From the NCBI GenBank assembly GCA_964565945.1, contig CAZMGY010000018.1:30001-62000 (forward strand): 32,000 nt of DNA. Direction: 5' to 3'. Numbering within the stretch: position 1 is the first letter of the stretch; every line of letters starts with the position of its first letter. The DNA is from an uncultured bacterium. GTDB lineage: Bacteria; GCA-001730085. Below the pieces are notes generated by a model. That model had not been told where the DNA came from and searched no databases. It worked only from the letters and a program-made list of their open reading frames with translations. Positions 1-32,000 of the stretch are shown here, in pieces. The translations under genes were made by a program, and so were the position numbers.

Positions 1-790
1 AGCTAAGCTAACCATAGAGCTAGTTAAACGACCATGCGTAATAGTTGAGTTTTGATTATGTTTAGCTACATCTGCTGAATTGGCTGAGAAACTATCGACA
101 ATCTTCTTCTTTTGACGCCCTGTGTCATAATATTGAAAATATGTGCGATTACTGCTCAAGATCGTGTTATTTGCGTCGCGAACCACACGCAATTCTTCAA
201 TTTTATTATTGCCCCCATAGATATTACGCATTTCGGTAATATCTTTAAGATTAGCAACAGTTACTCCCGAGCGATTCAATTCCGACCAATTCATTAAATC
301 GCTATAGTGGTCATTGCCTTTAAAGTTTTTGTTCATCATATAACCATTCAAAAGAGTGCTACTGCCCGACATTTGGCTGCTGTAAGTGAAGGTTTTTTCG
401 TCGCTATGATCATCACTATAGGTTTTTAAACGTAAGGTTTCATTTAGACCCTTCCCTTCTTCATAAACCACTTCTTTAACAATTTTAGCATTAGCCGCTG
501 GAGTTACCGAAGCATAGCCTTTCCAGCTACGCTTAACATGATTGTAAGTACCATCTTGTGTTTCATTCAAGCTATCGTAAAGTAAATTGTCGACCAAATC
601 GTATTCCTTGTCGATTACTTCATCAAGAGTTGAATTTGTTAGTAATGGTGGGTTTTTTGTAACTGAAGTCATTACATTTTTGATCAACCTGTGATACGTA
701 TCGTAGATTTTAACAGATGATGAAATTTTGCGGTTCCATACAGAATCACCAGCATGAAGCACACGACCAGTTAATCCCATAAAATGCTTC
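1..790 (-). repeat. YD-type repeats resume and run off the window
   Basis: Lines 1-240 translated: TYFQYYDTGRQKKKIVDS...ITEMRNIYGGNNKIEELRVV. The quick read upstream includes IYDTYHRLIKNV and LLYDSLNETQDGTYNHV. Confidence 0.5.
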
Positions 791-3700
791 GCGTCATCAT
801 ACTCAGCTTCAAGGTAAATATCATCAATAACACTCTCACCCTTTTTGATGCCTACGCGATTATCCGAGCGCAAATAATAGCTGTACTCACCATTGTTGAT
901 AGTGTGGCCGTTAATGGTGATATCCCCTTCAGCACCTTGCTTGGCGCGAATTTCACCTGCAGTAAAAACAAATTCATGACCAGTTGCATAAACTTTACCG
1001 AATGTTTTAAGCTTACCTCCAACCATACGTTCGCTCACAGTGATGCCAACATTCTCGAGAACATTTCCCCCATAGATGCGAATCCCATATTGGCCAGAAG
1101 ATTTTTGATAATATTCGTAATATCCGCTATTGATAACAACTGGTGAACGAACTTGAATAGGTGTATCCCCATTTTCGTATTTCATAATAAGTCCATGGGT
1201 CGAACTTGCAGGGTTAAGTTCAAATTCGAAATCATATTCGATCCGACCTGTTGGACGTGGATAATCGTTCACTAAGGTTGAAGCTAAAGTGACATTAGGA
1301 ATGATCACACCATCTTTGTCCTTAAGTCCTAATGTGTTATCGTCACGGATATAGAATGTGCTCTTTAAGTCGTCAATTTTTTGAGGTGGATCACCGACAG
1401 TGCTTGGGAAATTGTCCGTACTTACAGGAGGAAGAATCACACCGCCTAAGGGGGTATCTTGAATGGTTACAGCCGTTTCAGCAATCTTAAAAGGTTCGAC
1501 ATCGTAGATACGCATATTGGCAGCGTTATCTTCGGTGAAACGAACGGCATCTTGCGTAGAATAATCAACGCTGGAAACACCATCAAACGTGATGGTTTGT
1601 TTACGGCTCAACGTTTCGGTATTTTCTTTAAGTTCCATTCCATAAGCATCGTAGCTAAAATCAGATGTGCTTTTGGTCATCAAGGCATTATTTTCGATCA
1701 CTTGGCGTTGTTTTTGCTTAACAGTTGTGTCACTCCCCCCTCCAAAACGCTCTAAAGATAGAATTTCTTTATGCAATAACTGCGTGTAATCTTTATCGTT
1801 GTATACGCTTTCGTACGATTTCTTTTCTTGGCGAAAGGCATCATATTCTTGTGTAACCTCTTTCCATGTCTCTGTTTGTCTTGGAGGATTGATTCTTCTG
1901 GTAATGGCATGCACTTTTTTCTCTTTCGATAGTAAATCTTCTGTGTAACTTTGATAATCGGTTACAGTGGCTATTTCGAATGAGTTTTGCGTCATACGTG
2001 CAACGGTACCATCATCGTTATAGGTCTTTGTCATTGAATGAAAAGGACGTTCCCTACCAGCAATCACTCGACCAGAGCGCGTTCTCACATGATTCTGTGA
2101 TGTTTCACGGCGATGGCTATCGTAAGTGTAGCTCACAACATCTTGTTCAAGCTCATCTCCAGTCACAGCGCTTATCGTGACTACTGCTTTATCAAGAAAG
2201 TCTTTATCGAAAGCAAATTCTCTAATAGTCTCACCCACCGCAAGACCTTTATTGTTGTAGTTGGTTTGGATGGTTTTAGTTCTAGGCTCTTCGCCATAGC
2301 CACGTGAAAGTGCTACGCTCTGAGTTGCGCGACCTAAAGCATTATAGCTTTGATTCCAAATCACACGATCAGATTTAAAATTGACTTGATCTCCTGGTAT
2401 ATTGGTGACCGTTGAGACTTTTTCGCGACTAACACGTCCTCGATTATCATAAGTGAAGTGAGTGATTTCCGTATGTGGTAAATTATCTACACTTGATCCC
2501 GTTTCCACGGTTATGTCTAACTTATCTCCGTAAACATTATAAGAATTATAGCTCATTTTGGTGACTTTTTGACCACGAGAAGGAAGCGTTTTTGTTACAA
2601 TATCTTGCATTTTACGTCCTGTGGTGTTATCGAAAGAGTTTTCTGTCTTTTCATGCAAATAATGCACCACATTATCTTGAGGTACATAGCTATAGGCATT
2701 TTTTTTCGAGATAAAGTGATTGTTAAGATCAAAGCGATAGGTATTTTTAGTAACAATTTTTTTACGAGGCAAATCGGCGGATCCTTCGGAGCCATTTCGA
2801 GGATAAACAAGTGCAGTTGTTTCATAGACGCGGCCAAATCGATCTTGAAGCATACTTTCTTTTTGTTTACTTAGGCGGAAACCAGTATCGGTGAAAGTCT
2901 CTGTGGTCCTCTCTTGAACCTGACCGTCATTATAATATTGATCATAGGTGATCCGTGTATGCTCCCAAAGATATTTATCGGCTTCATTACCCGTTTCGGT
3001 ATAATACGTTTTTTGATCTTTTTGGGTTGGATAACCTTTTTGACCAATCACCTGTTGCATATTATATGTTTTATCAACGATAAGAATATTTTGAATATTC
3101 TTGTTACGATCTCTTTCAATATTTTTGACCTGTGTTTCTAAATCATACGAATTATAAGTTCTGTAGCTCTCTGACATAGACGAAAGCACTCCGCTTTCCA
3201 AAGCACCATCCATACTGTTAAGCCCTGCATTTTCGTAACTATAAGTCACGCTACTTAAATTAACAGAACCATCTTCGGCATAAACCGAATATACCAGTTC
3301 AGCTTTGGACTCTGATCCAAGGCCTTTGAGTAAGCGAGAGGTTTTCCATGAATTGCCATGAACATCGAGATTTTGTTTCCACATAATATTTTGAAGAACA
3401 ACAGAAGAATTAGCAAAGGTTGATCTTTGGTTTTCGTAAATGCTGCGCCTAAGATGATCATAGTACTGTTCCATTTTGACGGTTGCTGTAACGCTACTTT
3501 GATCATCCCCATAATGCTCAGTCGTTTTTTCCAGAACATTATCAAAGTGATCGTATTCATCATAAGTAATTTTTCGTCTGGTGCGATAATGCTTAGTTGG
3601 TCCACTCAAATCCAAATCGGTGTACATGGCCTTACGGGTTCTTTTGTCAACGATTTCATGCGTTTTACGGCCTGTCACATCATCGTAAGTGTTGTAGATC

Positions 3701-6700
3701 TCGGTGATCGATTCGCGGGGCTGTCCCTCTTCGAGAAGATTGGTAACCGTTTCGGTCTTTTTATTGATAAAGTCGGCAAAAAAGACCGCATGTTTAAAAT
3801 GATTGATGCTGGTAATGCGTTCATAAGGTTGATCATTTAAATCAGATGCAGAACGAGGATAATTATCGCGTGTGACGATGTTTTGGCGTTCGAATGCGTC
3901 GAATAAAATGGTTTCTTTATATTTTTCAACACGGTTGTTAGGTGCAGGATTGTTGTTATAACGTTCGATGAATTTTTTCGAAAAGCGGTAATCATCATCG
4001 TAATCTAATCCTCGAGTGACGCGGGTTTCTTTCAAATGTCTGTTTGAGGCGATGTCATTAGTGTAATAGATCTCTTCACGATCGGTCAAAGCAATCCCTT
4101 GAGCACGCAAACGATTATTGCTGTAATCACGATACAAATCCTTAATCGTAATGATGGTTCTTGTACGTGATTTGAATGATTCTAAAGCCAATTTAATAGG
4201 AATGAATTTTAAATTTCCAGCGGAGTGTTCAATTGTTTCTGTGATGTAATAAATCATTTCAGCCAAGTTTTTAGCAGCAATCACTTCATCCAGTTGATCG
4301 CTTGACAAAGATACCGCTAATTGAGTTAAGCGTGTTTTGGCAGCAATAAAATTCATATTAGATCTAGATAAATCATATAAAGCCTCTTTAATCGCTAAAT
4401 CCTTTTCTATTATGCGTGCTTTAGTGGCCAACACAGCTTCGTAAAGTGGTCGATAATTGAACTTCTTTTCCGATAATTTACGTAATTCCGCGATCACCTC
4501 ATCAATGCTCGTATCTGCAGCAAGAAGGGCTTTAGTAAGGTCTGTGTTTTCAGTTAAACGTGCATTTTCAGCAATCAAAAAAGCTTTGATAGAACTCAGG
4601 TTATTTGCTGAAGCAAGCTGCTTAGATATATCCTCTAGCAGTGGTGCTGTTTCTGTCGTCCGATAGAATGTCTCTAGATTCCATGCATTGTATCCTAATT
4701 CTCCGTTGTCTTTGACATGCGTGACGTGCGTTTGACTCTTAACAAGATCTTTACTGATGCTAATGTCTGTGTAGTCGTTAAGGTTATCATTTACCGATGA
4801 AGGCGCTCCATACGTGGTGATGGAGGATTCTTTTTTAAGACCTGTTGCTTGATCATAGGTATTTTGTGTGTCACGAATGAGCTTTTCACTGCCACTGCCA
4901 GAAATTTCAGAAATGATATGTTTCACTTGACCACGGATGTCAAAATCCAGCGACCATTTTTTCTCGACAACAGTGTTGCTGCCAGCTGTCGATACAATGC
5001 CTTCATAAGTTTGACGATGGTCTTTGTTATAACGGTTGGTGAATGTACGAACAGCTGAACTCGATTGATCTTCGTCGGTTAAGGTTACACGCTTAGTTAA
5101 AATATTCTCAAATTCATCAAAACTTAGATACTCAGTTTTTTTACGGCTAAAAAAAGATTTGCTCTTATCGAGCGTCTTGCTCAAATCGTTCCGCTTATAA
5201 GTAGCTTGGGTTTCGGTTTGTTTGCGCAAGGTATTGTCATATGTGTAATCTGTCGTGATTTCACTTTTTTGCTGACCAGAATAAGTTCGAGCGGCTGCAA
5301 ATGTGCGATGGCGAGTTCTTTTTTGAGCTGAATCATCAAAAACAAAGGCGCGTTCCAAAGTCTGAGAGATAGTGAATTCTTCACTATTGTAAAGGTAGGT
5401 GTTTTCCTTAATCACATGACCCTCAGGGGCCTCTCCAGAAACACTATGTTTACCATATTCGTCAATCAAAACAATCGCTTCACGATCATAGATATCATAG
5501 AATATATGTTCGATATTTTTGGCCACATAGAATAGGTTGGCTCCGTCAGAAGCTGGAGCCCCATTATCGCCACGGCTAATGTAACGTTTAATATTACGAT
5601 CAATCACGCGGTTTTGATGATCATAAGAATTAAAGACTGTTTCTCGTGTTTTGTCGTAAATTTCAGTATCCGTAACTGGATCAAAGACAAATTCTTTAAT
5701 GGTTTCTTTACTCATATTGCCTGAAGGACCAAGATTTGGATTGCTTAAATCAAAAGTACGCTCTACATAATTGATTCCAAAAATAGTGGCACTTTCTTGA
5801 GCTCCACCAGTATATTTAACCAATTTGCGCTCACTCTCGCGATCCCATTGGTCGTAACTTATATTAGAAACAACTTCGCTGTTTTTAATATTGCCAGTTA
5901 TTTGAGCACGATTAATGGTCGTTGAGGCTAGATTAATAGGCAAACTGTTGACTTTGGCCGATGTTCCATAGTGCACAACAATTTCAGCACTCATAAGACC
6001 CCGGTTTTTGGCATCATTATAAGTACGATCAAGTAGCTTGAGTTTCCCTATCGATCCTCCACCAATTTTGTACTCTACGATTTGAGTTGCATTGCCACGA
6101 GGATCAAAAGCTTGTTTCCATTGGATACGTGTAGCTGATTTACCATCGCCAAAATCAGAAACTTTGGTTTCTTTGCTTACACGACCCTCGGCATCTCTTA
6201 AATACGTAATGATGTCAGTTTTGCTGCCTTTTTGTGTGGTTCGACTCATTTGACGGTTAACTTTATCAAAACTTAAGATTTTGGTTGTTTCTATAGTCTC
6301 AAAGAAAGTACCAGCATCGGTCAAGTCAAGGGCAACCCCGGGGATTTGAGGGATTTTTTTGGTTTGTTCGGTCTCGATTTCGCGTCCATGAGAATCATGA
6401 GTGTAATTGGTATTGATTTGCATGCCGTAGGCACCTTTATTATTCCCCTCATCATCTAGTGTATCTGACCATTCAAAATAATTTTCTTCTTTGGATTGTG
6501 GCATGTCATTTTGAACACCTAGATATTTCTGATTGCTATAACTGCGTTCAACATATCGAAAGCCAGCTTGATCGGTACCATTTTTATAGAAAACTTTTTG
6601 TTTGTCCGACACTTGGCGATCAAAAATATCGTATTTAATATCATAGATACGTTCTTTTCCTGTTCGCTTGTTATCCATTGTTAAGATTTCGTTTGTTTTG

Positions 6701-9700
6701 GCAACTGCTAAGCCTCTTTCGTTATAGGTATAGTCAGATTCAATACGCTTCGACTGGGCCACATAAGGTCGAGCCAAAATAGTGCTAATATCACTACTAC
6801 TTTTGTAAGCGCTGTAATCATTAGGTTGATCATTGATGTATTTGGTGTTAGTTTTTTTTTGAAGCATACCAGAGTTAAGTAAATCTGTGTCGAAAGCATA
6901 GTATTCCATGATATCTTGGTTTTTGCTCAAAACACCTTCTTTAAATTCGTATGTCGTACGCGAACGATTACGATCCAAGAAATCTTGCTCCACTTCGACA
7001 ATCTGCTGATTCGACCATTGTCCCGCCGTTTTGATTGTCCCAAAGCCAGTTGTTTTCATGACACGATCGTTTCTATCGATATAGCTTCGAAAAACAGCCC
7101 AGGCTTTATTAAAATCTTCTCGAGAAACATTTCCCTGAATACTTTGATAAGCTTCTTCTTTAATCATCCGTCTCAATGCATCTTTAAGGAAATCTTTGCG
7201 AGTCATGGTCCAGCTAATGATGCCATCGACATCCTGAATGATATTGTAGGATTTAACCTTGTTGTAAAGATTAGGAGCAATGGCATCTAAGGAGATTCTC
7301 GCGATACGTCCCTCTGTTTTATCGACATTCCAAATGGTTTTATGGCTAGCACTCACAGAACTCCATAGATTAATAATTTGGCTGGACAAAGCTTGATTAT
7401 CTGCCTTCCAGATCACATGATTTACCCCATCATTATCAATCAGATTGGCATCAATCCAAGGTTGAAGATCCAAGCCCGTAAAATCACTCCCTAAAAAGCG
7501 ATTGGTGTTGCGATAGACCTCTGTATCGGAACCATAAGTAACGATATTTTGAATTTTGCTACGATTGAAAGAATCAAAGGCTTTGATATGGGTCTCTTGA
7601 ACCGTTTTTTCCGTACCCAGGCCTTGTATGATATCTACTTTTCTTTGAACACGATCCATATGATCATACTCGTAAAAGTTTTCTGTTGTTCTCAGGGTCA
7701 CCATGGCCAGTGTTTCTCTATCGGTCGCTTTTTGAACGGATTTCTCGTAGAGTTTAAAATCATATTGATTGTAGGCCATCGTTTTATCTTCGACCGATAA
7801 AACATCAGACATATCATTGTACATACGTAGTTTTAAAGCCTTGACGCCCTCGTAAAGACCTTGATAACGGGGATTAAGATCTTTTTTGGCTTCTAAAGCC
7901 GTAATCATCGCATCGATAGTGGCTGCATTAACGGCGTCATTAAGATCGCCCTCTCCAGAATTGCCCTTATTAAGAGCCTCTTTAGCTTCAATAAAGTTTC
8001 TAGCCAATGATAAATCGAAAAATCCATCGTTCAATCGCTTGTTAGCAACGCCTAGATTTGCTTGGAAGGCCAATATAGCTTGATGAATAGCGTTATACTG
8101 ATTTTTGTCTGATTTTAAACTGGCCAAATGCGCCAATATTGCAGACATATTATCTATTGAAGTGATGGCATCGAGGTCTGCGTTATCCAAAACTTTATCA
8201 AAACGTTTGAGAATATCTTTGACATCAACAAAGTTTTCTGCCTGTGTGATTTTCTCAGCCACTTGCTGATAAGACAATTCGGGTGTTGCCAAAGGATCGT
8301 ATGTGTAGGTTCGTGTTTCGGTCACTTTGTCGAGATTATCAAAAGCGAGGTTCACAGTACGTGTATGACTGACCAATTGTCCCCTAGGTCCAGCTTGGTT
8401 AATATTGGTCTGATTAGCTAAGCTATCGCCAGGATTAGGGCGATAAGTTTTTTGAATTTCCTGAACTTGACGGTTGGCAAAAAAGGTATTGTCATACTGT
8501 TTTTCTGTGACTTGATATTTCCATGCCCCCTGGTAATCTTGGATCTTATCTTTGCGAACTTTCTCACGGTTAAAGACATCGTACAAGATGTGTGTAATTT
8601 TGGTTTGAGCTGTTCTTAAACGTGACCCTTCTGTTAATGGATAAGGCTCCATGGCTTGACGAGACGTTCTTTTCAGTTTAGGTTGATTATGTAAGTTATA
8701 AGCTAGATATTCTGTTCTTTCCCGTTCTTTCATAATCCATCTTTGAAAGCTTTGATCCCAACCATATTGATCAACTTCTTGTGTTTTAAAACGATCAAGA
8801 TTGTCATAGGTATTCGTGCTGACACGGCGATTATGTTTGTCCCAAAATCCTCTTACTTCGTTATAATGAAAAACATCAGTTGTTTCGATATAAACTCGGT
8901 CTTTAGGATTATCTCCATGTAAATATTGATTTTTTTGAATCAAACGACGACGCTCTTGGGACATTTGCAACAAATCATGACTATTATTCTTTTCGTATTC
9001 AATCGTTGTCACTTGAGTTGTTCGACCTAATTGATCAAACTGATAACGTTTGCGTGTTTTGCTGCGATCAACAACTAAACCAAGAACTTCGGAAATGGCT
9101 TGTCCTTTCCATTGTGTTTCGGTGTTAGCCATAGCGGCATCCTGAGCTGTCATTTTAGAAATAATGTTCTCTTTAACTACGTCAAAGATACTTTTTCCAA
9201 TATTATTGATAAGTGTGTTGGCCGGAATACCAAAGAAGCCTCTTAAGATGTTGGCCAAAGTTGAAGCGACAATCATTTTGAAGGATTGACCCTCAATGAA
9301 TCCGCGCACCCAGTTGTAAAAACCTGTTTTGAAAGCTTCCAACATATGAGACAATCCAAATTTTTTCTCACGCTGAGTTAACTTGCCTTGATGAGAGCGC
9401 ATAATAACATCGTAAAGCTTGGAATTTATATCCCCTTCGACAGCCACCTGATTTTGTTTTAAAACACGTAAACGACGCAAAACTTCTTTGCTCATATCAC
9501 TGGCATTGATGGTATTTTTACCTGATATTCTCTTGGCGCCATCCAATGTAAGAACACGGTCAAAATCTTCTTTGCGATATTGGGTGGTGACCAATGCATG
9601 CTCGACAGCTTTACCCATAGAATCATAGATGTAATCGTTGAATTCCTCTAGGGCCGTACGGTTTCCGTACATATCAAATTTTGAATTAAGCTTATGAGTC

Positions 9701-12700
9701 ACTTGTTCAAAAAGATTGTATTTAAAATCAAATTCCGAAGACGCCTCAACCAAGAATTTACCAGTCAATTCTCGTCCTTCCAAATCAAGCATCGCAGTCC
9801 CATCTTCATAGGCGCGTACACGGTAATTATAGATATATTGTTCACGACCTTTGAGACGGCCTGTTAGTTCATCATAGATGTTAGCACTCTCCTCTTCTTT
9901 GGTTAAACCTTGAATCGTATATCGTTTTTGCGCAACATCATAAAGAAAATTGGTTCCTGTTTGTGTCATTTTGTTGGACTGGCGTCCATCGGTATAATAG
10001 GTGTAATGCGTAGCTAAGGCACGTCGAGTAGCCATATTATTCGTATCGGGATACTCCCATCGACGATCACTTAAAAGACGACCATCTTCACGATACACAC
10101 GGTCAAAAGTTGTGGTTTGTTTTTTCGATAAATAATCAATTTCGTGACTATGACTAAGGCGCAGGTTATCGTTGTATCCCATAATGCGCTTGGTATTCTC
10201 GCTTTGAGAAAAGCCATTTAAGAGAGCGTCCTGATCGATCACGAGCGTATCACCATCCAGTCTTTTAGGCAACTTACCATTGAGAAGATTTGTGCTACGA
10301 TTTTTTTGATATTCTTGTTTGGTAACATGAATCGGCATACCACGGTAATCGAATTTCTCAAAATGTTGCACAGATAACCTTGTATTTCCTTTTAAATGAA
10401 TGGCAGAAAAAAACCCTTCCATAGCGGCCACACGTTTATGAGAATTAGAAATCCTGGCATAATCTAAGCTGGCAATGTTAAGTTCGTAAGGACCAATAAT
10501 CGAAACGAGGGCTTGGAATTTGTTTGCAATTAGCACCAAAGCCGTATTGGCATTTTTAATAGCGTCTTCAGGCACGGTTAAGGCCTCTTCATTGATCATT
10601 TTAGCTAAAACATTGGCTTCCTCCGTCGATAAAACGCCATTTTTGTTACGATCGGATAAGGCTAAACGAAATTCGGCTAACACATCGACCACTTGAGGTT
10701 GTTCTTTGACAATTCGTTGCATAATCTTAATTTTGTCGACATCAAGACTTTGTTGAACCGGAATACCAGTAGGATTGCTTGCCGACACAGGATTCAATTT
10801 ATTAATGATTAGCTCTAAAGTGATTTCGGGGCGAATGACAAAGCCTTGAGCAGCGCGATCTCTAAGGTTATAAATGTAATTACCAAACAAGCTATCCAAA
10901 AAGGCATTTTTGTCAGCGTTGCTCAAACCATCAAACGTCATCATCCATGCGCTAAAAGCCGCTTTCACACCCTGAACTTCAGGATAATCTTGACCAGTGA
11001 GAATACCACGAATATTTTGAAGATCTTGAGCTGTGGCATTATTAACTGCTTTAAGGGTTCTTTGCAGGTCTTTTAAACGAACAGCAAAGCGATCTAACTG
11101 CCCTTGCTTAGGATTGGTGTAATCAGAGCTAATCAAAAAGTACTTCTCAAGGATTTTTCGTGCTTTCTGAACTTTCCAGGTAACCACTTGCATATCGTCA
11201 TGAGAAGTTTTACCTAAATCTGTTCCTTGCGCTAAAAACTTTGTTTTATAAATATCTAAATAAGCACCCTCGTTCATAACCATTACGTATTCATTAACTT
11301 TTCTTTTAAAGCGATAGTCTAGGCTGTTTTTGCTGTAACTCAATGTTTTCCATAGAGCATCTTCGACATCATCCGCAAAGTCGAGCTTGGCTTTAAATTC
11401 TGCTTCAGTATCATCTAAAGCATCTGCACTCCAGGTGGTGTAGGGCAAATCCATATCATAAAAATCAATCAAACCAGCTGGAAGCAAGTGCTTAAGTGGA
11501 CTTACACCCACAGGTAATTCATTAGAGCCACTGTTCAAATTAAGACGAATTTCTTTAACACTATTATCGTAAAAAAATTCTTTGACTGTGGTTTCTGTCA
11601 ACGCGTAGTTGTTTTCTCCAAATCGATACTTGGATGTCGTTGCGGAGTCCCAAGTGACCTGACCATCATTGTCATATGTCCGTTGACTTTTGATTTGCGT
11701 TTCATCCTTGTAATACGCACCACCTTCTAAAGGCACATCCTTTAACTGACCCCATTTGTCATATTTTCTAGATAATGATGTCGACGAAGTAACAAGGCCG
11801 GTGTTGTCACCACCAGTTTGAGTTGCCTGGTCATAGTCTTCGTAATAAAAGGCATAGTAGAGCACCTTACCAGTTGTTCCTGTCACTTGACCCGCTTCGT
11901 TCTTAATAGCTTCTAGAAAAATACCATCCAATACGGTTCCATCTGCACGTTTGAGCCCAATGGTTTGATCTGGACGAATAAAATAACTGACTTGACCATC
12001 CTTAATCATATATTTGCCAATCTGTGCTGGGGGTTCTATCTCTGTCTTTGCTAAAATAGAACCCCCAGCCACACTAAAAGCGTCATCTAAGTGCAATACA
12101 ATGGGATTGCTGGCTTCATCTTTAAGAGTCAATTGATCAACATCAAACCGATCTTCACGAACCTCTAGAACATTGGAACCAGTGTTATCATAACGGTAGT
12201 TACGCAAAATATTATGGACTTTATTTTTTTTAGCATAATCAGTTTTTTCAACCTTAATAAACTTCTTGCCATAAGAATTAGTTCCTTTTTCCATGCTAGC
12301 CAACAAATTACCATTGGCATCATAGGCCCTTTCTTGAATAACATAGTTCTTATAAAAAATATTCATTTGACTCGATGTGCGACTTAAACCTAGAGCATTG
12401 CTATGCTCGGGATCACTTGAAAATTCTGGAATCGTAAAATCGAGCTTGTCTTTGTCGATAGCAAACCACATCACATTATCGGTGCGACTACCGTTATCCA
12501 CACGGTCTTCACGTTTTTTAATAAGGCGTCCATTTTGATCATATCCCATATTCCATGTATATTTGAGAGATACATTCCCTTTAGAATCAAAATTCTTGGT
12601 GTTTTCAGCAATTTTTTGTCCCAAACGGTTGTATTCGATACCTGAATAATGGGTTTGGCTAACCGCATCACCCTTATCAACAAAGTCATTGAAAGACACT

Positions 12701-18700: not shown

Positions 18701-21700
18701 GTTGGTAAATCAGACAGATTCGGACTTGTCGATGGATCGGCATCTTCGATGCTCACCATCGTGGCAGAACGGTCTAAATCCACAAGTGTAAGATTATTCA
18801 CTAAATTGCTTAAAAAAGATTTGTACTCGCCATCGGGAAGATCTGTGTAATTAACGTGTGCCCTTGTAAGATTGAAGTTATCCCTGTCAGGATCTTCCCC
18901 ATCCAAGTAAGCTCGTAAGAAGAGTTTCGCATGATTGATTAAATTAGAGGCATTCATATGAATATCTTGAACCCAAACCTCTTCCAAGTCAGTAATATTG
19001 TCATCGGGAATCCCAGAGCGAACCTCTTGTGAAATAATTTTGACAATGTCTTGCGCTTCTCGACGAACTAAGGCGGCTTGGACTTGTTTTTTGGCCTCAC
19101 CATAGCTCAAATTTGGTACTGAATCATAGTCAATGGTTCCTTCGAAAGCTTGTGCTGCATTGTATTGATCGACCGCAAATCCACGTAAAAGTGTATCGCG
19201 AATATTAAAATTTGGTGTGAAATAGTTGATTTGAATATTGTAATCATTAACGGGTAGTCCTCCATCAATAAATGCATTAAACTCTGTATTTCCTACGCTT
19301 TCATAGGCACGCGTTTGATAGTTGACTGTTTCGAACAAGCTGTCATTGAACAAGTTTGTCGTTCTCTCATAGCTTCGCGCATAATCACCTGCAACCAGTG
19401 TGTCTAGATCGGTAGGAAAAAGATTTTGATTGCTAGATCTCAACGTCGCAGTCACATTTTGTGTTGGATCGTTAAAGACCCTAATAGCCGCATCTTTGAA
19501 AGATTGTAAAAACACATTGGTTGCAGCCATCGCGTCAGCCTTAACCCCAGCATCCATGCCTTCGAACATATTGAAAACATCATGCAAATTAGCTCCTGCA
19601 GCAATTCGGTTGAAGGAGTGATCGCGCAATCTATCTGTTTGGGTGCGAATAGCGCTCATTTGCTCCACTTGAGAATCCATGTTGGCATGCATATCAGCAT
19701 ATTTTTTAAAAAAAGTGGCAATCATTTGTTCATAGTAACCAGCCAACACCTCCATGCGTTTAATGCCATACGAATACACATCATGCTTAATACGATAGGC
19801 AACATAATCCGCTGTCGGAGGAGAAGCACTCACTGCAGACAAAGCAGATAAAGCCGCTGTCATTTCTGTGGACGCATTTTGAAGAGTTGTGTTCGTTGCG
19901 TTGGTTTTATCGTAATCATTAGCATTCAATGTTGCAAACACATCTGGTGTAAAATATTCATAAACAGCGTTAGATGGAGTGGATAAATCTAGGTTTTTAA
20001 CTTTTTTAATGGTCGGATTAGCCCATTTTTGCAATTGAATGATCAACGCTGTGTTTTGAGAACGCGCAGAAAATGTTACACCAGCCGCCTTATTACGCAA
20101 TAAATCCATCTCTTCGTCTAACAAACGATCAATATCTGCAAAAAGACTCCCCATAGGCTCAAGCAGTTCGTACTTCATCATTTGCACCTTATGCTCTTCG
20201 ACCAAACGGCTTAAACCTGTTTGCTGATTGATAATGTCTTGAATTTGATCATTACTGATTTGATTAATCCGGCTTATGTATTGATTATTTTCGCTTTGAA
20301 CTGTGTGTAACGCATCGATATGTTGCTGCAATTCATATTGACGCTCAGCATAACGGTTTCTTTTGGTTTTTTCAGCATGATACTTACTCATAATGATTTG
20401 TAAGTTTTCACGCATATTATTAGATAAAGATGCCGAAATGGTGCGTTCAAAATGAAAGGCTTTATAGTAATGGATACCCTTAACTTCCTCCGTCGCAGTG
20501 ACCATATCGCAGATGACTTTGGATCCCTGAAGCAATTTGTATTTTTGGACAGCCGAAAAGGAATCTATCAAACCACCTACTCGCCAAAAATTATTCCATT
20601 CGGCTTGCGTCATCGACGTTGGCACCTCAAATTGAGCCTTCCAATCATTGCGCAAACCAATAAATGTCTGCGAATCCGTCAATTGACCATGTTCCGCGAG
20701 ACCAAAATATTCTTCCCAACGCTCTCTTTCTCCACTGTTAGCTGAGTCTTTATCGGGCAATAAAAAGGTATTGAGAGACACTTCTGATTTAGGTGCCAGC
20801 TGAAAGCTGCCTTGGACTGGAATTTGAACACGTGCAGCTCGGTCTCTTAATTCGGGTAAAGCAACACTGTGTGTTTGATCCCATAGATTAAGGATTTTGG
20901 TTTTGTCACTAACCGAATAGGCAAACTCTAGCAACTTAGATGCCAAAATGGTTCGTGTGGCTATATTCCACACAATATGGGTATCCTTATTCGGATCAAT
21001 TTTGATTAGGTTGTGGACAATCATTTGCTCGATCGTTGCATTCGATAACAAATACGCGCTGCCTAACTCTATACGTGTCATTTCACGAGCTGATTTTCCA
21101 AGAAGGATCAATTGTTCCTCGGATGTTAACGTATTGTAACCAAACGAAGGACTTAACCAAAAAGCCCTCCACTTGCTTTGATAACTAACCTCTTCTCCGT
21201 CTTCATGCACAACAAATTCGGCTTCAGTATCCCATCCTTCGGGAGCCTCAAATAAGCCTTCGAGTTCGTTACCAAACAGTTTTTCAGTGATTTCAATCTT
21301 GGAAACAATTGCATTGATACGGTCGTTGATAAGAACTTTTTCTTCGAAGAGTTCGGCAATTCGCTCATCATCAACAGGCGATTCTAAGGTATTAAGCGTT
21401 AGATTGAGATTGGCCAAGGCACGACGTTCACTGGCTAGGTTTTCTTCCAAGCTCTTCTTATAGTTATTAATAACATTTTTCATAAGAGAGTTGGAAGGAA
21501 TCGCAGATTTGTCAGGATTTTCTTCATTCTTGGCCTGAACGATGTTGTAAATCACTTCGCGCATCACATTGCGTGTTTCTTCGCTTAATTCACCCGATTC
21601 TTCCAATAATTCGGAAATAATACGATACTCAGAACCCGAAGGAATCTCGATTTTCGTTTTTGTGATTACTTTTTCCTTTTGGTTATTCTTAAGTACCGCA

Positions 21701-24700
21701 AAAATAACTGCTTTTTGATCAGCTCTTTCATCAAGGGTAAATTCAACGGCTTCTTTCATTTGCAAAAATTTAGTTAACAATAAACCCTGAGCTAACAAAT
21801 AACCTTTGGCCTCCAATTCATCCCAAAGCTGTTGTGAATTAAGTCCTAAAGCATCTAAGTCATTCAAACCAATCACATCATTTTTTTTATTTTTCAAAAA
21901 GTTATAAATTTCTTCAGTATGCTCCGAGAAAGGTGCTTTAAGGTTAAGATCTTGATGGCGCAACAAACGGTTCATTTTATCGGTGTAAACCCCAACATTT
22001 TTGATGTAATTTTTTGCCACTAAATCAGCCCACATGGCTTTTTTCTCAGCATTTGTCCCCGTAACGGTCGAAAAGTCCTCCATCGAGATCAAGCCCCGAG
22101 ACATCGCCAACACATCCGATTTTTTAAAGCGATTCATCATCGAAGACGAGGCCACAGAAAATTTGATTGTTTCTTCTCCCAGAACTACAGAGCCCCCACT
22201 CAACACAAGTGCTTGCTGTTCTTCGTTAAGCTGGCTGAAACCATAGTGATCACTATTCCAAAAAGCATCCCACTTGGAACGATAATCCACGTCGGCGCCA
22301 TCTTCATTCACGGTATAAGACGTTTCCCAACCTGTTGGAATGCGGAAAAATGTTCCTAACTCTTCACTTGTGCTACCAATTTTGTAATCTTCTTGATCAT
22401 ACTCGAGTTCTTGGCCAAAGCTGTTATAAGCGATGTTATAACGAACCGTAATCTCTTTCATATTAGGAGATGCGTTTTTAACCCGAGATTCCTGATACGT
22501 CAAAAGCTTACCAAACTTATTGTACTGAATGTTTGTCCGTTCAGAGTGTGTCACGTCATCCACATCAAAGGCAGTTTCGTAATCAACAACAAAGTCATCT
22601 TGGATCGCATTGATCATGCCCGTGGTAAAATCTTTATCATCAATAAGACTGTCTTGATTGAGGTCGAAGCGAGCCCATAACGCAGGATTCACATTAGCTA
22701 GAAACTCATAAAGCATTAATTTCTTAATCAAGCTCAAGTCATAATCAAATTCATTCAACGTTCTAGCTCCAAATAGTCTGCGGAAACGAACTTCTCCCAA
22801 AGCTTGCTTCATATCTTTAACCGAAATAATTTCTTTGTCTGGAAAGTATCTTCCGTACTCCACGGCGCCTAATGCCTCAATAGCTTGCGAGCGTGTGACT
22901 TCTGTGGCAAATCCAAACAAACGGGTGTAATGGTTGTAGCCAAGATCTTGAGTTACTTTTTGAGCAAGCTTAACAAAATCATCAACCGAAAAGGTCGAAG
23001 CCGTTTCAAGCTTTTCGATGATCGATAACAGATAATTTTTTAGGGATTGGCCAGTTAAAGAATACTTTTGAATCGTTTGACCTTGTTTTTGTGATTTTTC
23101 AATGTATTGTTTTTCGCGACCAAAAACATCATAATAAATTCGTTTTTTCTCTTTGATGGTGATCGAATCTGGCGATGATGTGCTCACACTGCTCTCTTTA
23201 GTGTATCTTTCCTGGCCTAGTTTATTATAGATCGTGTCGTTACGATGGACAATATCAGTCACATCAATCCGGGCTTCGCTCAATACCGACTTGGATTTGA
23301 TCTCGACCACAGCATCTCCCTTCTCATCTTTTAAACCAGTGCGAATGGTTGTATTATCATCAGCTGTAATGGCCTTTAAAAGGGCATTCAAATCTTTTAT
23401 ATCTGATTCCTTAATGGTCAAAAGACCATCTTTCTCCAAAAAGAAATGTTGCTCTGGTATCAACTGGGTTTTGACATCTTGAGTTGGAGTTTTGTAACGC
23501 ATAACTTGAGCTTGTCCAATACGACGCGAAGCAATTGAACGTTTTTTAAGTAGTCCCGTTGTGTCATAGTGCATATCTCTCACATAATCGATGGTCAATA
23601 AATCAGGCTTACTGAGATTTTTTTTGGTTTCGGTATAACCGATAAGCTGAGACAAATCATTATAGGTGGCTCCAATCCGTGTATTAAATTCTCGTGTGTC
23701 AATCACCTCTTGCAACTGAATACCTTTGCGAGAGGCTAAAACACCCCCCGCAGCAAGAGAATCCACAAAACTGACGCGTGCCTGTTGAGAATTACTCCAT
23801 AGCTGAACAACAAAATCAATGTTTTTCTCGCTGTAATCAAACTGATTCAGTTTAGAGCGCAATTCGCTTTCTGATGTCACATTCCAATGAAAAAGGTCCT
23901 TATTGCTGGGATCGCTAACAAGAACCTGTTGTTCAACCGAATTGAGTGATGCTAGCAAGCTTGCATCCTCAAATGAAGCTCTTCCAATTTGACTTCCTAA
24001 CAATTCAGTGAAGCCTGTGGCCTGAGCATGAGGCATTTGATCAAGCTCATTCTTGGTATAATAACGTAAGTTTCCAGTAGCTTTAGCCACAACAGACTTA
24101 ACCTGATCACCATCGACATAAAGCGCTTGATCTTGAGCGCTCATTTCGTTCCACTCCTCTTGAGTCATATAGAAAGATGTAAGACCTGTATGGTCATCAT
24201 TAATATCTACTTTGTGAAGCAATTGCAACAGAGAAACTTTTTGGGGTGTACCATAGGCCTTTTTCTTCTCAAAATCCAAATTCGCCCACTCTGACTCCGA
24301 GAAAAAATCAAAAGTTCCTGGAGAATCGTTTTTTTCACTCATCACCAAAACGCTGCCATTTTGCAAAATTCGTTGAAACGATGAATCTTGATCATTGACT
24401 TTTTCAAGTTCATCTCTTAAGGAATTATAAAAGATTTCTGTAACTTGATAGCGATCAAAATAAGTCGTTATATCTAAAGAATTTCTAGCATAAGGCAAAG
24501 CTGAACCTTCAACGCGAATAAGCTGATGAGCCGTCCCTGCAATAGTAACACTTTGCCCAAACAAAAGCCGTTCTTTATCTTCAGATGCTAAACCATCAAA
24601 CACACCACCTTTGATCCAAAAGGTACTCCAGTTACCTTGAACCCTCGATGCGCGCATATCGAAGGCCGCCTGCCACGCACTACGATCGCGATCAAAGCCT

Positions 24701-27700
24701 GTTTTCAAATCGTTAACAGCGACTTGATTATAGTTGGCAAAACCAAAAAAGCGCTTTGTTTGCCCATGCTTTGTTTTCGATTCCAAAAATCCTTTTTCTT
24801 GGCCCTCTCCTGTGTAAAAAATCGATTTACGCTCGACATGTGTTTCAACCCCTTGGTTATCTGTTACATCTTCGACATAGCTTTCAACTTGAACATTGGA
24901 GTTATAAGTCGTTTTTCGACGTAAAATTGTGGTCGTATCGTTGATCTCGATGCTATCATTCACATAACCTAAAGTGAACGCTCCCAAATCATAATCGTCA
25001 AAAAAAGAGCCTATGTTCCTCACATAGGTGTTCAGCAAGTCTCCATCATTGGGGAAAAAAGTTTCGTTTTGAGCCACGGTGGCAATATTATCTGCATTAT
25101 CTGCTAAAGCAGCCAATACAGCAACTCTTTGCGTTCCGCTCAAATTTGTATCAATCAGATTTTTGAACCAGCTTAAGGCCTGTGAACGGATATCCACAGC
25201 TTCGTCATGATAAATTTTAGCAATATATTCCTGAGTTAACAGGGCTTTGAGCCATGCATTATTTTCAACAATTTCCCTATTAACGCGTTCAACAGTGCTG
25301 ACACCCTTTTTTTGGACTGTTTGACGATACGAATTCTGGCGGTCAAATTTTTCATATGTGATATCTGTCATTACTGTGATTGTCGTTAAATCGGGCTGAG
25401 CTGTTGAGCGTTTAATTTCATCATAGGCATTAATATTGCCCGTTTCGTTGTATTGAGTATTGGTGCGCAATAATCCTTCTTGAATGTCTTGCAACACCTT
25501 ATTATCCAACTGATCATAGGCCAATCGATGCGTAACATCGAGATACTCAAACGTTTGACCAAGACGATTGTACTCAATAGCACTTCTCGAAACACGTTCT
25601 GATTTTTCAAGGCTCTGAGTTTGCCCTTTAATCGTTTGTGAGCCTTTAACATTTTCGAATTGGGTGTAACCCGTCATTTGCTCAAATTGATTATAAGTGA
25701 TATGGCTACGTGTTTTGCTGGTTTCAGAGCTACCTTTAGCTGCTATTTTGCTACTTTCACGATAAGCGACTTCTTGATTCAAATCATTACGTACAATCGA
25801 AAAGCGGGATGTGCTGTTAATGTTGTTCAGTACATTTGTTTGTTGATAGCTCACCCCTGCGCTAGTCAATAAGTCCAAATCATTTTGATCGATCACCTCA
25901 TCTTTGTTTAAATCAAAATGTTTATCATAAGCGCGACGTTGCTCAATCATGTCTTTGATCATCATTTCGGATTCATAATAGTTGAAGTTCATATCAGTCA
26001 GAGAGCTTCCCAGCTCAACGTCACGTTCATCATAAGAAAACTTCAAACCATCAAGATAAACACCCTCCCAGGTTTTTAGCTTAACACTTGTTCCCAAAGC
26101 AACACCATCAGAAGTATCTACTTTTAAATTCGCCAAATTTTTAGGATCAAAATTAAACGTTGGATTTGGCACATAAACTTTCTTAATAGCTTCCCAGACA
26201 CGATCTTTGTCACTACGCCGCATCGAGCCAAGAGCCTCATAAAATGAGTCGCGATCATTGCCCAACTTGGTCACGGTCACTTGCGTAGGGCTCTCTTGAT
26301 CTTCAACAACCAATCCTTGATCCAACAACACTTGCAAGCGATTGCCTAAAAGATCTTTACTGATACGTCCGTCATTATTGATTGCGCGAATAATCTGATT
26401 CATGTCGGTCAATTCCTCACGAGACGTGCTTGAATCAGAGGTCAGAGTATAAACCTGGGTTACATTTGATTCTTCATCCCAAATTCTATTGTCGGTGTAC
26501 TTACGTTCCCAACGATTAATGGTATCTACAGCACCTGGAACACTGTGTAAATTGGTATCTTCAACAAAGCTTTTCAGACGAAATTGATCATCGTATTTCA
26601 TATCATAGCGAAGGGTTCGGCTTTTTTTATCAGGGCTGTCCGAGCGTTGAGTTGTGTCTTCGTAAGACAAAATAAGACCCGTCGAAACTTGCTGAATTTT
26701 AGCATGGGCATCAATGTAATCAACCTTTTTGTAAGTAATATTTTTTCTTTCGCTGATTTGACGCGAACGCCGCTCACCGCCTAAAACATTTAAGCTAAAA
26801 ACCATATTTTCCGTGATTGAACCAGGAAGAACATTTTGTGCACCCAAATTTCCATAAGGACCGTTAACACCAAAGAAGAACTCTAGGATTAAATCATTGA
26901 CGGCTTGTTGGCTCACAGCATCTGGCTCGACCGCCTCACGTTCTTTAAGCGCACGATAAATCTTTTGAGCCAGTTTTTGACGTGGAGCATTAATATCATC
27001 TTTAGCCATTAGGAAATCACTGCTCTTAAATACGTCTTGCCCTGATTTGATCTGATTAATCATGGTAACAGTTTCATTTTGATCGAAGTTTTTTGTTAAA
27101 TGTTCTCCCAAAAAGATTTTATGCGTTAAGGCAATTTTAGCATTGACTGGAATCGTATCGATCTTTACGTCGCGACCATTAAGGGAACCAATGGCTACTC
27201 CGTCCACGTCGGGTGTTTGTGATACCTGAGAATTCTCTCCAAAAAAGTAATCAAGAATTTTATTATTTACAGAATGAACAGTGATTTCACCATTGTTGCG
27301 GGGATCCCCATCTTCGAGATTTACCAAATCGTTGTAAATGTCACTAGCCAAAACCTTAAGCGCGTGATCTTTATCCTTAAGATAATAAAAATCATATTGT
27401 CCAAAGACCTTAGTACTATTAAGCAATGATACAGCTAATTGTTGCAGAGCAGCACCTTCATAAGCTACATATTCATCCGCTTCCCCCATTTTTTCTGTGA
27501 TTTCTTCGTAAGACAACATCCTCCCATCGGCATCATAGTTTCCAGACCAATCGACAATCGTATCAATCGCTTGCTGACCATTGTTATCATATTTGCGGGT
27601 GATTTTATGCTCATTGATCCGTAAGCTACGAACTTTTTCGTATTCGGTTTCAATCACAGTGATTTTCTTAGGAAAGCTTACATCAATTCCCTTAGAATGA

Positions 27701-30700
27701 TTGTCATGTTCCATATCAAACTCAGCTTCTTTGGAGAAGATCTTGTTGCCGCGAGAATTATATTGGCCTGACCAGCGAAAAGTTTTGTTCTCTTTAAGCT
27801 CACCTGTCGATTTATAAGTAATGTCCCCTCGATAAAATTCTTTTTCCTTGCGATCTTTTTTCTTTGCACCTTCAAGATAGGTGTAAGCACCTTGCCACTT
27901 TTCATAACGTTCACCATTCACCGTGTTCATACCAGTCTCATAAGAACCTAGGGTTTTTCCATCACTGTTATAAGGGTATTTTGTCACAATTAAATCATCA
28001 CGACTCAAACCACTAGGTCGAAGAATAGCTAAATTAACTGTGCTGAGATCAAAATCTTTGGTGATTAAAATGGCTTGATTATTACTATCTAGAATTGGCT
28101 TAATAATACCCTCACGATTTTTGTATTCTAGGATGTTGGAAGCATTCCATTTGATGTCGACAAATTCCTTGCCTTCGTTCTTTTTGTAGGATTTATAGCT
28201 TAATTCTAGGTCATTATTGTCGTAAGAAATGTCACGACGTTTCTCAACAGAGGTTCCTTGAATTTGACCAGAAATCAATTCACGATCATATTCCAATGAA
28301 CGATCAGCTGCATCATACTTCATATTCTTCATTCTCGTGATGTTCAATACCCCATCAGTCACGGTGCGTTCGGTGTAAGATTCTGTTCTTTTCAAAGTAT
28401 CGTATTTCATATCAAAACGATGCGTCTGGGTGCTGTGGCCATTAGAGATGTTTTTCGAGAAATATTCTTTGCGATTGTCATCATGATCATAATAAATTGC
28501 CTGCATTTCCATGTTGTACTCAGATCCTTCAGCATTCACGCCCTCTTCTTGATAGGCATATAGGCGCTTTTTTTTGTCATAAACCATGTTTGTTTTTTTG
28601 CTATAGGTTTCATTCACAATCGGATGCTCAATTCCTTTGGTCTCTTTTATTTTAACGATGCTTCCAGTCAAACGTTGGTCAGCGTTATAACCAAGATTTG
28701 ACGTTTCTGTCATAGATTCGCTGTATGATGCAACTTTACTCTTGTCTTTCACATCACGGTGGGTTACTTTGCGATAATCGGTGTAATTAAATAACTGCCC
28801 TTTAACCAAACGCACATCGGACTCTAAGTGACCCTCTTTAATCAAGTTTTCGTTACTATAAGAATCTAGCTCACTCGCATCGCGGTAAGATTCAGAAACC
28901 ATGTCTTTGATCAATTCACCGCGCTGACCTTCACCTTTAATAATCCAACTTTTACTCTGTTCCGTTTCGGTGTTGTACTTAAGCAAGTTAAAATCCCTTT
29001 CCAATTCACCATAAACAGAACCTCCCCAAGTTTGATAGCTAACAGATTCGACACCCACTTTATGTTTTTCCAAGTCTTTGGCCGTTAAAACATAACCCAA
29101 ATCATTCAAAGCATCGAAATAAAGGTCACTTTTGTTCGTCAAAAAATCGTTATAATCGGCTAAATCACTTGCAATATCGTAGGATGGCAACTGCTGATGA
29201 AGTCCCTGCGATGTCCAGTAAACAAGCAACTCTTCAGGACTTTGCACGATCGAGTTCCAAATATCTTCCGTAACCTTAAGTTCGGCTTTTTGATAAAGAC
29301 GACTTTTATACTCCATAAATTTTTCATTTAAAAATCTTTCGATATCTACATTAAAATAATCACGAATGAATTTATTCGACATTTTGCTCATATTGGCATT
29401 GCCATTGCGCACAATGCTCAAGAGATCGACATCGGGATAACTCTTATCCAACGACGTTTCTAAGCCTGAAAAACGAAGTAAATTATTCCACAACTCATCT
29501 TTAACGATAGTGATTTCGGAATCATCGCCTTGCAAATCATTTTGCAAAATAAGATGGTCATTCAATACCTTGGTTAACCCTGCCTTAAAATTAGTTAAGG
29601 CTTTTATCATTAACTGTTTTTCTTCACGATAGTTGTCGTAACGCAAAGCTGTCATTTTATCTGTGATTGTTTGGCTATAGTTACGAAATGTCTCGGCATC
29701 ATCACCAGATAAGGCTGGCCACTGGGATGTCTCACCAAACACAAACTCGATAATTTCGTTAGCATCTTCGAAATTGACATTCGGTGCATCGGCATCGATC
29801 CGTTGACTTTCAATCACGGGCTTGGCCAATTCTTGTAAAGCAAGGTCAACGTACTCCATATACGAGTTATCTCCTTTATCTCTGTTATTGATAAAAAGAC
29901 CTGTATTTTTAAAAATACGCGTTAAAATATCAATGTCGGAGGCACTTAAAACACCTTTGATTTCAAGATAGGATAGCTTTGAATCCACATCCTTAAGGCT
30001 ATTCCATACTTTATCTGTCTTGGATCGAATAAGACTTAAAAGATTGTCTTGCGGATTGTAGAACTTATTATGATGCTTGATTGTTTTTTTGTTGTACGAA
30101 CGAATATTATCGCGATAATCGTAAGTAGCATCATAATAAATCGATTCTTCATCCGTTAGCTCATTATTCTCATCAATTTCATACTTATACACTTTATATT
30201 TGGTTATATTCCCATTAACATACTCTGTTTCGAAGCTTGCTGTCTCCAAGATGCGGAATAATCCTCGACGATAAACAGCAAATTCAGGAGCTACTTTAAA
30301 ATAACTATAACCCTCTAAAGATTTAAATTTTTCTGTGATAACTCCAGCTTCTGTGAGATAATTGCGTTTGATCAAATCATTCCAAATATCTTTGTTTTTG
30401 TAAGGGATGTGAGATAAATCAATAACGTCTTGACGATTATGTGGATCCCAAAGTCCCCATTTTTCGACTTTGGTGGCTTCTTGATTGCTATATGTTGTTT
30501 TCCTGTAAGACAATACATCACCCTTTTGAGTGTAAGCAATTTGCTTGTCATAACTCATCGCGGCGTCCCAAATTATCAAGGTTTCCTCGCCATCACTAGC
30601 TTTCGTATGTTCACGGTAAGACACAAGCTTGTCATTGGCTTCCGTTTTACTTTCAAAAAAGTAATTCGCTTCCCAGGTAATATCTTCAACTTTACCTGAA

Positions 30701-31686: not shown

Positions 31687-31692
31687 AGCCCT

Positions 31693-31697
31693 CTCCT
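31693..31697 (-). promoter_or_regulatory. Shine-Dalgarno (AGGAG) of the giant gene
   Basis: Minus strand reads TTTAGGAGAGGGCTGTG: AGGAG, a 6-nt spacer, then the GTG start at 31686. Confidence 0.75.
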
Positions 31698-31751
31698 AAA
31701 CTTCGGGTAAGTTTGTTTCCCCAAACACAGCAAGCTCACTACGCCAGAACT

Positions 31752-31781
31752 TATATAACATTTGTAGCAAATATTTTGCAA
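31752..31781 (-). promoter_or_regulatory. Candidate sigma70-type promoter of the giant gene
   Basis: Minus strand has TTGCAA (31781-31776), an 18-nt spacer ending in TGt, then TATATA (31757-31752), i.e. an extended -10 arrangement about 65 nt upstream of the start. The region is so AT-rich that -10-like hexamers are frequent, so this is tentative. Confidence 0.3.
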
Positions 31782-31800
31782 ATCCATCTACAATGAAATA

Positions 31801-31864
31801 ATTCATAAATTAAAATAAAGATCATTTATAAATTAAATAAGTGTAATGATTTATTTATAAATTA
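31801..31864. repeat. Three direct copies of AT[TC]ATAAATTA upstream of the candidate -35
   Basis: attcataaatta at 31801-31812; atttataaatta at 31824-31835 and 31853-31864. The last two are identical, and their core ATTTATAAAT is a perfect palindrome. Start-to-start spacing is 23 and 29 bp. Confidence 0.6.
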
Positions 31865-32000
31865 GATTATAATTAAGATATTTGGATCGAAATAGCAAGG
31901 AGTGAAATGAAATTTTAATGATATTATTGTTTACAAAAAATTTAATTAACTTAAAAAACATAAGCTAAATTAGACCATTTGCTCGAAATTACGCTACGGC

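Follow-up and report, generated by a model that had tools for sequence, protein, structure and literature searches.

Proteins of the RHS/YD kind form shells in which long beta-hairpins line up in one continuous antiparallel sheet, with a Y-D/N-x-x-G-R/Q turn motif in each hairpin. A single RHS shell has a size of about 700-1,500 amino acids (aa). Structures are available for an RHS core (8QJA), for TcB/TcC (6SUQ, 4IGL, 5KIS) and for teneurins (7BAM, 9G2H). Here, we analyzed a stretch of 32,000 nucleotides (nt) from an uncultured bacterium (assembly GCA_964565945.1, contig CAZMGY010000018.1, positions 30,001 to 62,000), hereafter called the window, which is occupied almost entirely by a single giant gene of at least 10,562 codons. 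Its predicted product shares the turn motif and, in a structure model, the hairpin sheet of the RHS/YD shells. On balance, we favour the view that it is a real, secreted giant protein whose RHS-like arrays serve as an extracellular contact and effector-delivery scaffold.

Giant open reading frames (ORFs) are also described from other uncultivated bacteria, in particular the 'Archaeovorin' and 'Dockerin' types of the Omnitrophota, most of which likewise escape annotation by hidden Markov models (HMMs) (West-Roberts et al. 2023; Seymour et al. 2023). Long stretches of RHS-like antiparallel beta-helix, with helices in between, are found in these giants (West-Roberts et al. 2023, bioRxiv 10.1101/2023.11.21.568195). 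In contrast, Pfam searches and a hydrophobicity scan of the protein described here revealed no multiple transmembrane segments and no SecA-DEAD, C39/S8 peptidase, dockerin or discoidin domain. As it has neither transmembrane arrays nor a SecA domain or dockerin, it is not of the Archaeovorin or Dockerin type. Sequence similarity to the Omnitrophota giants was not found either, and no match named as Omnitrophota appeared in protein searches of 5.8 billion proteins.

The initial annotation of the window had called bacterial genes above 10,000 codons rare, which holds only in part, because such genes are uncommon but not exceptional. In BV-BRC, 7,478 proteins of at least 10,624 aa have been catalogued, and proteins of at least 10,000 aa are 'frequently detected' in Elusimicrobiota (West-Roberts et al. 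2023, bioRxiv 10.1101/2023.11.21.568195). With thousands of such genes on record, size alone is not new. What is new is the extreme divergence of the protein (no Pfam family at E ≤ 0.05 in 10,562 aa), a long-stranded YD variant with units of about 30 aa, and a large orphan core.

One uninterrupted frame fills the window

Translation of the reverse complement showed that the minus-strand frame from the GTG at 31686 down to coordinate 1 comprises 10,562 codons without a single stop in the standard code, while the remaining five frames contain 407-1,220 stops each. Given the base composition, this frame should contain about 727 stops, and the log10 probability of finding none is about -327. Within the 314 nt upstream of the GTG, the same frame contains 10 stops. 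The coding sequence (1..31686, minus strand, as are all window features given below) is thus complete at its 5' end and cut by the window edge at its 3' end, where the frame is still open.

These results bear out the initial annotation, which had proposed exactly this open frame, its minimal length and its incomplete 3' end. Its counts were also exact on recount: no closed ORF is longer than 137 aa, all 16 minus-strand ORFs of at least 60 aa lie in one other frame, and 23 of the 32 plus-strand ORFs fall into the codon-aligned antisense frame. This is the frame pattern described there for shadows of one very long real gene, and we support that interpretation. The giant ORF is indeed absent from the ORF list, for the sole reason that frames left open at a sequence end are not listed there. 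We further considered recoded or non-coding DNA and rejected both, since TGA, TAA and TAG are all missing from this one frame only.

The GTG start codon (31684..31686) is the first possible start after an in-frame TAG (31696-31698), three codons upstream. A Shine-Dalgarno-like GGAGAG, read from the sequence, is located at 31691..31696, 4 nt upstream of the GTG. The upstream region (31687..32000) is AT-rich with 26% GC and presumably contains promoter and leader; a promoter scan of this region gave no signal above shuffle expectation. At the edge of the window (31954-32000, minus strand), the giant's frame shows 15 open codons followed by a stop (…RSVISSKWSNLAYVF*), which may be the end of a same-strand upstream gene.

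Codon-position composition is uniform over the 31.7 kb, with GC1 at about 0.48, GC2 at about 0.34, GC3 at about 0.35 and purines at about 65% of first positions. Across blocks of 1,000 codons, the corresponding ranges are 0.46-0.51, 0.30-0.38, 0.32-0.38 and 0.62-0.68. Taken together, the lack of stops, the ribosome-binding site, the uniform coding signal, the homologues and one confident fold (see below) support a single very long real gene. Positions 1-31686 represent the 5' 31.7 kb of a genuine standard-code gene that continues past coordinate 1.

An artefact, that is, a chimeric or mis-joined assembly or an open frame without expression, is extremely improbable in our view. It is favoured by the fact that no reads, transcripts or peptides stand behind the ORF and that the sequence is absent from every public collection searched. 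However, a chimera would have to keep the frame and avoid stops over 31.7 kb, and composition and codon bias are homogeneous throughout. No direct repeat in the DNA of the window exceeds 31 nt or 86% identity, and the sole tandem repeat is a 32-nt array; without long repeats that could seed a misjoin, repeat-driven misassembly is unlikely. Moreover, the protein contains ancient internal duplications (24-48% identity), with paralogous pairs at aa 3109-3185/3474-3548, 6537-6610/10239-10311, 8701-8934/9238-9459 and 3042-3122/5356-5435. These modules link far-apart parts of the ORF and therefore tie it together as one evolving unit. Finally, the gene of one distant relative (P0008, see below) likewise fills a whole contig of 22 kb.

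A putatively secreted, acidic and cysteine-poor product

The product known so far has 10,562 aa, a mass of about 1,208 kDa (about 1.2 MDa) and an isoelectric point of 5.39, in line with 1,529 Asp and Glu versus 1,292 Lys and Arg residues. Only three of the 10,562 residues are cysteines (aa 19, 3726 and 5070). Apart from this near-absence, the amino-acid composition is ordinary, and low-complexity sequence was not found.

A Kyte-Doolittle scan of all 10,562 aa exceeded 1.6 only at aa 14-37, directly ahead of an AFA|QQ motif, and gave no further candidates for membrane spans. Based on this hydrophobic stretch and the motif, a putative Sec signal peptide was assigned to aa 1-37 (31576..31686; KKYVR / VVSCLTVQLFIATSMDVSL / AFA|QQ). 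Comparable N-termini are present in five of the relatives (P0001, P0003, P0004, P0006 and P0007). Judged from its sequence, the product is a soluble, acidic and Cys-poor protein that is targeted to Sec by a putative signal peptide.

YD-like arrays and their predicted fold

A unit of about 30-32 aa with the pattern R/W-x4-5-Y-[DN]-x2-G-[RQ]-h-x2-[YF]-x-E recurs along the protein. An HMM of this unit detected 22-28 copies, grouped 2-7 per cluster, and none in locally shuffled or reversed controls. Clusters were found at aa 240-300, 1030-1400, 1990-2100, 2670-3110, 5240-5660 and 5900-6400. The looser motif [YF][DN]..[RQNK] occurs 112 times, compared to 38 ± 6 times in shuffled sequences; it is nearly absent from aa 3500-4500 and takes the form '[YF]D..[DN]R' in aa 7100-10050. 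Iteration of the unit HMM, with an imperfect script and again zero copies in shuffled and reversed controls, did not spread into aa 7100-10050.

In window coordinates, the N-terminal YD-like array (aa ~205-400) lies at 30487..31074 and is colinear with the N-termini of P0001, P0004 and P0006. It is followed by a cluster at 27487..28599 (aa ~1030-1400), recognized by the unit HMM, and by three clusters recognized by both self-comparison and the unit HMM, namely 25297..25719 (aa ~1990-2130), 22312..23679 (aa ~2670-3125) and 14707..15969 (aa ~5240-5660). The best-conserved arrays (aa 5842-6440, 12367..14163) stand out by their matches to homologues and were used for structure prediction with AlphaFold2 and comparison with Foldseek.

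For the model, aa 5842-6440 were aligned with 35 in-register windows from P0001-P0007, in which the YD columns are well aligned. AlphaFold2 returned an all-beta structure with a mean predicted local distance difference test (pLDDT) score of 73 and values above 90 over local residues 310-540. It consists of 34 strands of about 10-15 residues connected by 5-residue turns; the insert between the two arrays was modelled with low confidence. Compared with the PDB, its best Foldseek match was the Rhs core of a type VI secretion system (8QJA, E 4.6e-11), followed by three TcdB-TccC entries, teneurin-4, teneurin-2, the single-layer sheets of OspA, and YenB/RHS2. The six best matches are all RHS/Tc/teneurin shells (E 4.6e-11 to 1.4e-6), and RHS/YD shells as a group are the best structural matches of the segment with E-values from 4.6e-11 to 1e-4. 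According to this model, every unit predicted with confidence forms a single long beta-hairpin, and the hairpins join into a continuous antiparallel sheet like those of RHS, Tc-toxin and teneurin shells, so that at least one YD-like array is predicted to adopt an RHS-type sheet. The match concerns one segment of 600 aa and is local.

Beyond sheet and turn motif, the giant differs from the RHS/YD shells in several respects. The Pfam and NCBIfam models for RHS/YD miss its unit, which spans about 30-32 aa and has strands of 10-15 residues, and its global TM-scores to the shells are low. Its arrays are scattered over more than 10,000 aa instead of forming one shell. The RHS-core DPxGL motif, a PAAR/VgrG link, a beta-propeller and a plug domain were not found in the 10,562 aa present. 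By sequence models, the giant is not a member of the RHS/YD class; by its predicted structure it locally folds like a YD-shell protein, and it would work like one.

A family of giant relatives

Among 5.8 billion proteins, the search yielded eight distant matches (P0001-P0008), all of them giant (2,927-7,965 aa), with E-values from 1e-12 to 1e-46. Their similarity amounts to about 24% identity and covers 4-11% of the query per match. According to phmmer domain maps, it is confined to aa ~200-400 and ~5850-6400, and about 90% of the giant has no detectable homologue. A tblastn search with aa 5842-6440 gave no match in phages and plasmids.

Four of the eight relatives are named as proteins from metagenome-assembled genomes (MAGs) of Elusimicrobia/Elusimicrobiota. 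Examples are 'hypothetical protein ABII74_02365, partial [Elusimicrobiota bacterium]' (7,965 aa), 'KCHDKBKB_02153 [Elusimicrobia bacterium]' (7,733 aa) and 'DUF4214 domain-containing protein [Elusimicrobia bacterium]' (5,022 aa). With these relatives, the giant shares a signal peptide followed by a YD-like array of about 30-aa units, colinear over the first 300-400 aa, as well as further unit arrays, an insert module of the form 'W..LS..EQ..LL.G', the giant size and few or no Pfam domains. It already exceeds the longest of them (at least 10,562 aa versus 7,965 aa), and they contain no counterpart to about 90% of its sequence, among it the central region of about 1,500 aa. Based on the signal peptide, the colinear N-terminal array and the shared insert module, we assign the giant to a small family of uncharacterised giant proteins with signal peptides, mostly from Elusimicrobiota MAGs, to which it is very distantly related.

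The unit is most regular in P0008, where it reads W-x5-Y-D-x2-G-R-[LIV]-[LIV]-x-Y-x-E with a strict period of 30 aa. The gene of P0008 (L009:1-22184) fills its contig and is cut at both ends; its first ~1,400 aa form a near-perfect 30-aa repeat. Even these regular repeats are missed by the RHS/YD sequence models, and among the relatives only P0005 reaches 27 bits with RHS_repeat, and only when summed over stretches.

Toxin domains, gene context and proposed function

Two of the relatives carry the polymorphic-toxin domain Ntox10, which is tied to RHS repeats and to trafficking via Sec and the type II secretion system (Zhang et al. 2012, PMC3482391). P0004 (5,382 aa) ends in this domain (28.1 bits, cut-off 26.8). 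In P0007 (7,733 aa) it is internal (~aa 5286-5412, 45.1 bits) and followed by about 2,300 aa; the corresponding region (L003:25568-26626, aa ~5190-5542) is unlike the usual C-terminal position seen in P0004. P0005 carries DUF4214, and the C-terminus of the giant itself lies beyond the window. We also noticed by eye 'GHSxG' hydrolase-like motifs at the C-termini of P0002, P0006 and P0007 and rejected them, since neither Pfam nor mutual BLAST supported them.

In five of the six relatives with readable 3' context, a further ORF overlaps the stop codon of the giant gene by 4-22 nt. These ORFs (L002:26128-26418, L003:33199-33855, L004:27469-28560, L008:14819-15430 and L001:18771-19730) encode 96 aa, 218 aa with HEAT repeats, 363 aa with TPR repeats, 203 aa and at least 320 aa, respectively. 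The overlap suggests translational coupling of the downstream ORF. An ORF overlapping the stop codon in this way is typical of toxin-immunity pairs; a known Imm family was not matched by any of the stop-overlapping ORFs. Of six relatives with upstream context, three have a cluster of RND-efflux genes (OEP, MFP, one or two ACR_tran, some TPR-fused) just ahead of the giant gene (L001:431-9769, L002:1-879 and L003:1-6402), and the other three (P0003, P0005 and P0006) lack it. This cluster could represent a dedicated export or envelope system, or mere lineage synteny.

With its predicted signal peptide and the YD-like arrays behind it, the giant shows the layout of polymorphic toxins, in which an N-terminal trafficking signal precedes a repeat 'stalk'. 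Lineage-specific insert modules and the orphan central region of about 1,500 aa interrupt these arrays. In the scenario we favour, the protein would be exported via Sec to the outside of the cell and there build a very large extracellular or cell-surface scaffold of beta-sheet, as a shell, tubule or ribbon. Through this scaffold the cell would make contact with others, and effector domains would be carried on it or delivered by it, as in RHS-type polymorphic toxins. Any terminal toxin and its immunity gene would then sit beyond the window edge.

A number of results weigh against this scenario. Pfam searches with ten pieces of 1,000 aa identified zero families at E ≤ 0.05, and Pfam and NCBIfam searches with the two 5,000-aa halves gave nothing meaningful, with no NCBIfam YD/RHS-core match at E ≤ 0.1. 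When selected pieces were searched at E ≤ 10, the sole match was Pfam RHS_repeat (PF05593), with E 0.59 and 11 bits versus a cut-off of 22. Sequence searches of the PDB with both protein halves, the P0008 repeats and profile A1 gave nothing relevant. Neither 5,000-aa half has a self or near match among the 5.8 billion proteins, peptide-pattern scans with the C-terminal 1,000 aa found no match in genome, metagenome or viral contig collections, and homology to the relatives is limited to about 10% of the protein length. On the structural side, Foldseek TM-scores are just 0.10-0.25, meaning that the match is to the local sheet architecture and not to a global shell; such scores fit a closed cocoon around a C-terminal cargo as well as an open sheet. 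The single-layer sheets of OspA come next after the YD shells. A second AlphaFold2 model (aa 8420-9010, alignment of 7 rows) showed hairpin-like secondary structure at a mean pLDDT of 43. Lastly, no toxin, pre-toxin or immunity element lies inside the window, and the DP.G[LWIVMF] motif of the RHS-core protease does not occur in the 10,562 aa present, its usual C-terminal site being outside the window.

Part of these results would fit a purely structural or adhesive giant surface protein without toxin cargo, acting as a long fibre or tubule that attaches to a host, prey or substrate. We consider this main rival unlikely. In its favour, neither toxin nor enzymatic domains turned up in the 10,562 aa, a single RHS cocoon would require far shorter and less interrupted arrays, and the single-layer OspA sheets are also significant structural matches. 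In addition, attachment roles have been proposed for the RHS-like beta-helix tubules, decorated with exterior helices, of Omnitrophota giant proteins (West-Roberts et al. 2023, bioRxiv 10.1101/2023.11.21.568195). In contrast, a bona fide polymorphic-toxin domain is present in two relatives, most relatives have a downstream ORF that appears translationally coupled, and no recognisable adhesin domain (Ig, cadherin, dockerin or lectin) was found by Pfam.

Insert modules, C-terminal region and orphan core

Besides the YD-like units, self-comparison of the protein revealed several modules present in more than one copy. Insert module 'B', with the motif W..W...L[ST].E[EQ]Q..[LI]L.G, occurs at aa 3109-3185 (22132..22362) and, with 38% identity to this first copy (E 5e-12), at aa 3474-3548 (21043..21267). 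A jackhmmer search with this module found just the giant's own two copies; related modules of the form W..L[ST]..[EQ][QK]..LL.G were recognized, partly by reading, in P0001, P0003, P0004, P0005 and P0008. Module 'C' is present at aa 6537-6610 (11857..12078), aa 10081-10136 (1279..1446) and aa 10239-10311 (754..972), with 36% identity between the first and the third copy (E 2e-10). Insert module 'E', which by eye looks helical, has copies at aa 7807-7907 (7966..8268) and aa 9018-9122 (4321..4635) with 28% identity. Two further small modules were observed: one ending in '…[IL][LI][ED][FY][FV]FG[EV]N' at aa 1415-1485 and 1536-1608 (window 26863-27441 for aa 1415-1608) and, by eye, at aa ~631-660 (29707-29796); and one of the form 'W..L...GY[IL]' at aa 3233-3335 and 6029-6131 and also in P0008 at 4959-5099.

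The C-terminal third of the window protein (aa ~7100-10050, 1537..10389) carries '[YF]D..[DN]R' units, which are grouped into modules about 190-240 aa long, and its paralogous blocks share 24-29% identity. From the structure prediction in this region, a beta-hairpin fold is only suggested. At aa ~7441-7520 (9127-9366), this region includes a Gly-rich amphipathic stretch (…FKTGFYNWVRGFIEGQSFKMIVASTLANILRGFFGIPANTLINNIG…), which by eye is like regions ahead of the C-terminal domains in P0004 and P0006 and has no model support.

Another reading is that the protein is made as a polyprotein or multi-effector precursor and split, once exported, into a number of separate RHS-like modules and cargo domains. 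The position of Ntox10 in P0007, about 2,300 aa before the C-terminus, shows that members of this family can have effector-like domains in their interior, the YD arrays of the giant are several and lie apart, and the Gly-rich stretch at aa ~7440-7520 recalls the regions before the C-terminal domains of the relatives. However, that resemblance was seen by eye only, and neither a protease domain nor the RHS autoproteolysis motif was found. We regard such processing as very unlikely and retain the contact and delivery scaffold as our preferred explanation.

The central orphan region (aa ~3750-5230, 15997..20439) is nearly free of YD motifs and has an Ala content of 10.3% compared to 5.4% elsewhere, with lower Lys and Glu. 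When aa 3790-4989 were compared exhaustively by HMMER with 1.84 billion representative proteins, one match was returned, a fragment of 95 aa (E 1.6e-6). This fragment is encoded on a JGI metagenome contig of 1,089 bp (L010:125-412) and pairs with aa 4448-4533 (window 18088-18345). A tblastn comparison with this orphan-region relative showed 34% identity over 85 aa; the rest of the contig is dissimilar. No tRNA genes and no Rfam families were detected in the window.

A bolder idea, which we consider decidedly unlikely, is that the gene represents an undescribed class of megadalton extracellular machine. YD arrays, inserts and orphan core would together form a multi-chamber or tubular beta-sheet that houses or delivers several internal effectors, rather than one cocoon with one toxin, in a lineage without close relative in public data.

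Biological implications

With its product of at least 1.2 MDa, the gene serves as a case of how standard ORF lists and fragmented assemblies systematically miss giant genes. The RHS/YD beta-hairpin architecture, as predicted here, is extended by it to a long-stranded variant of about 30 aa that is unseen by the Pfam and NCBIfam models used, and its ~9,000 aa of orphan sequence constitute a large reservoir of unexplored protein folds. The relatives point to a family of signal-peptide giants, mostly from Elusimicrobiota MAGs, and polymorphic-toxin domains are present in some of these giants. If the proposed role in toxin delivery or attachment is true, the way in which uncultivated bacteria interact with other cells could depend to a major extent on such proteins.

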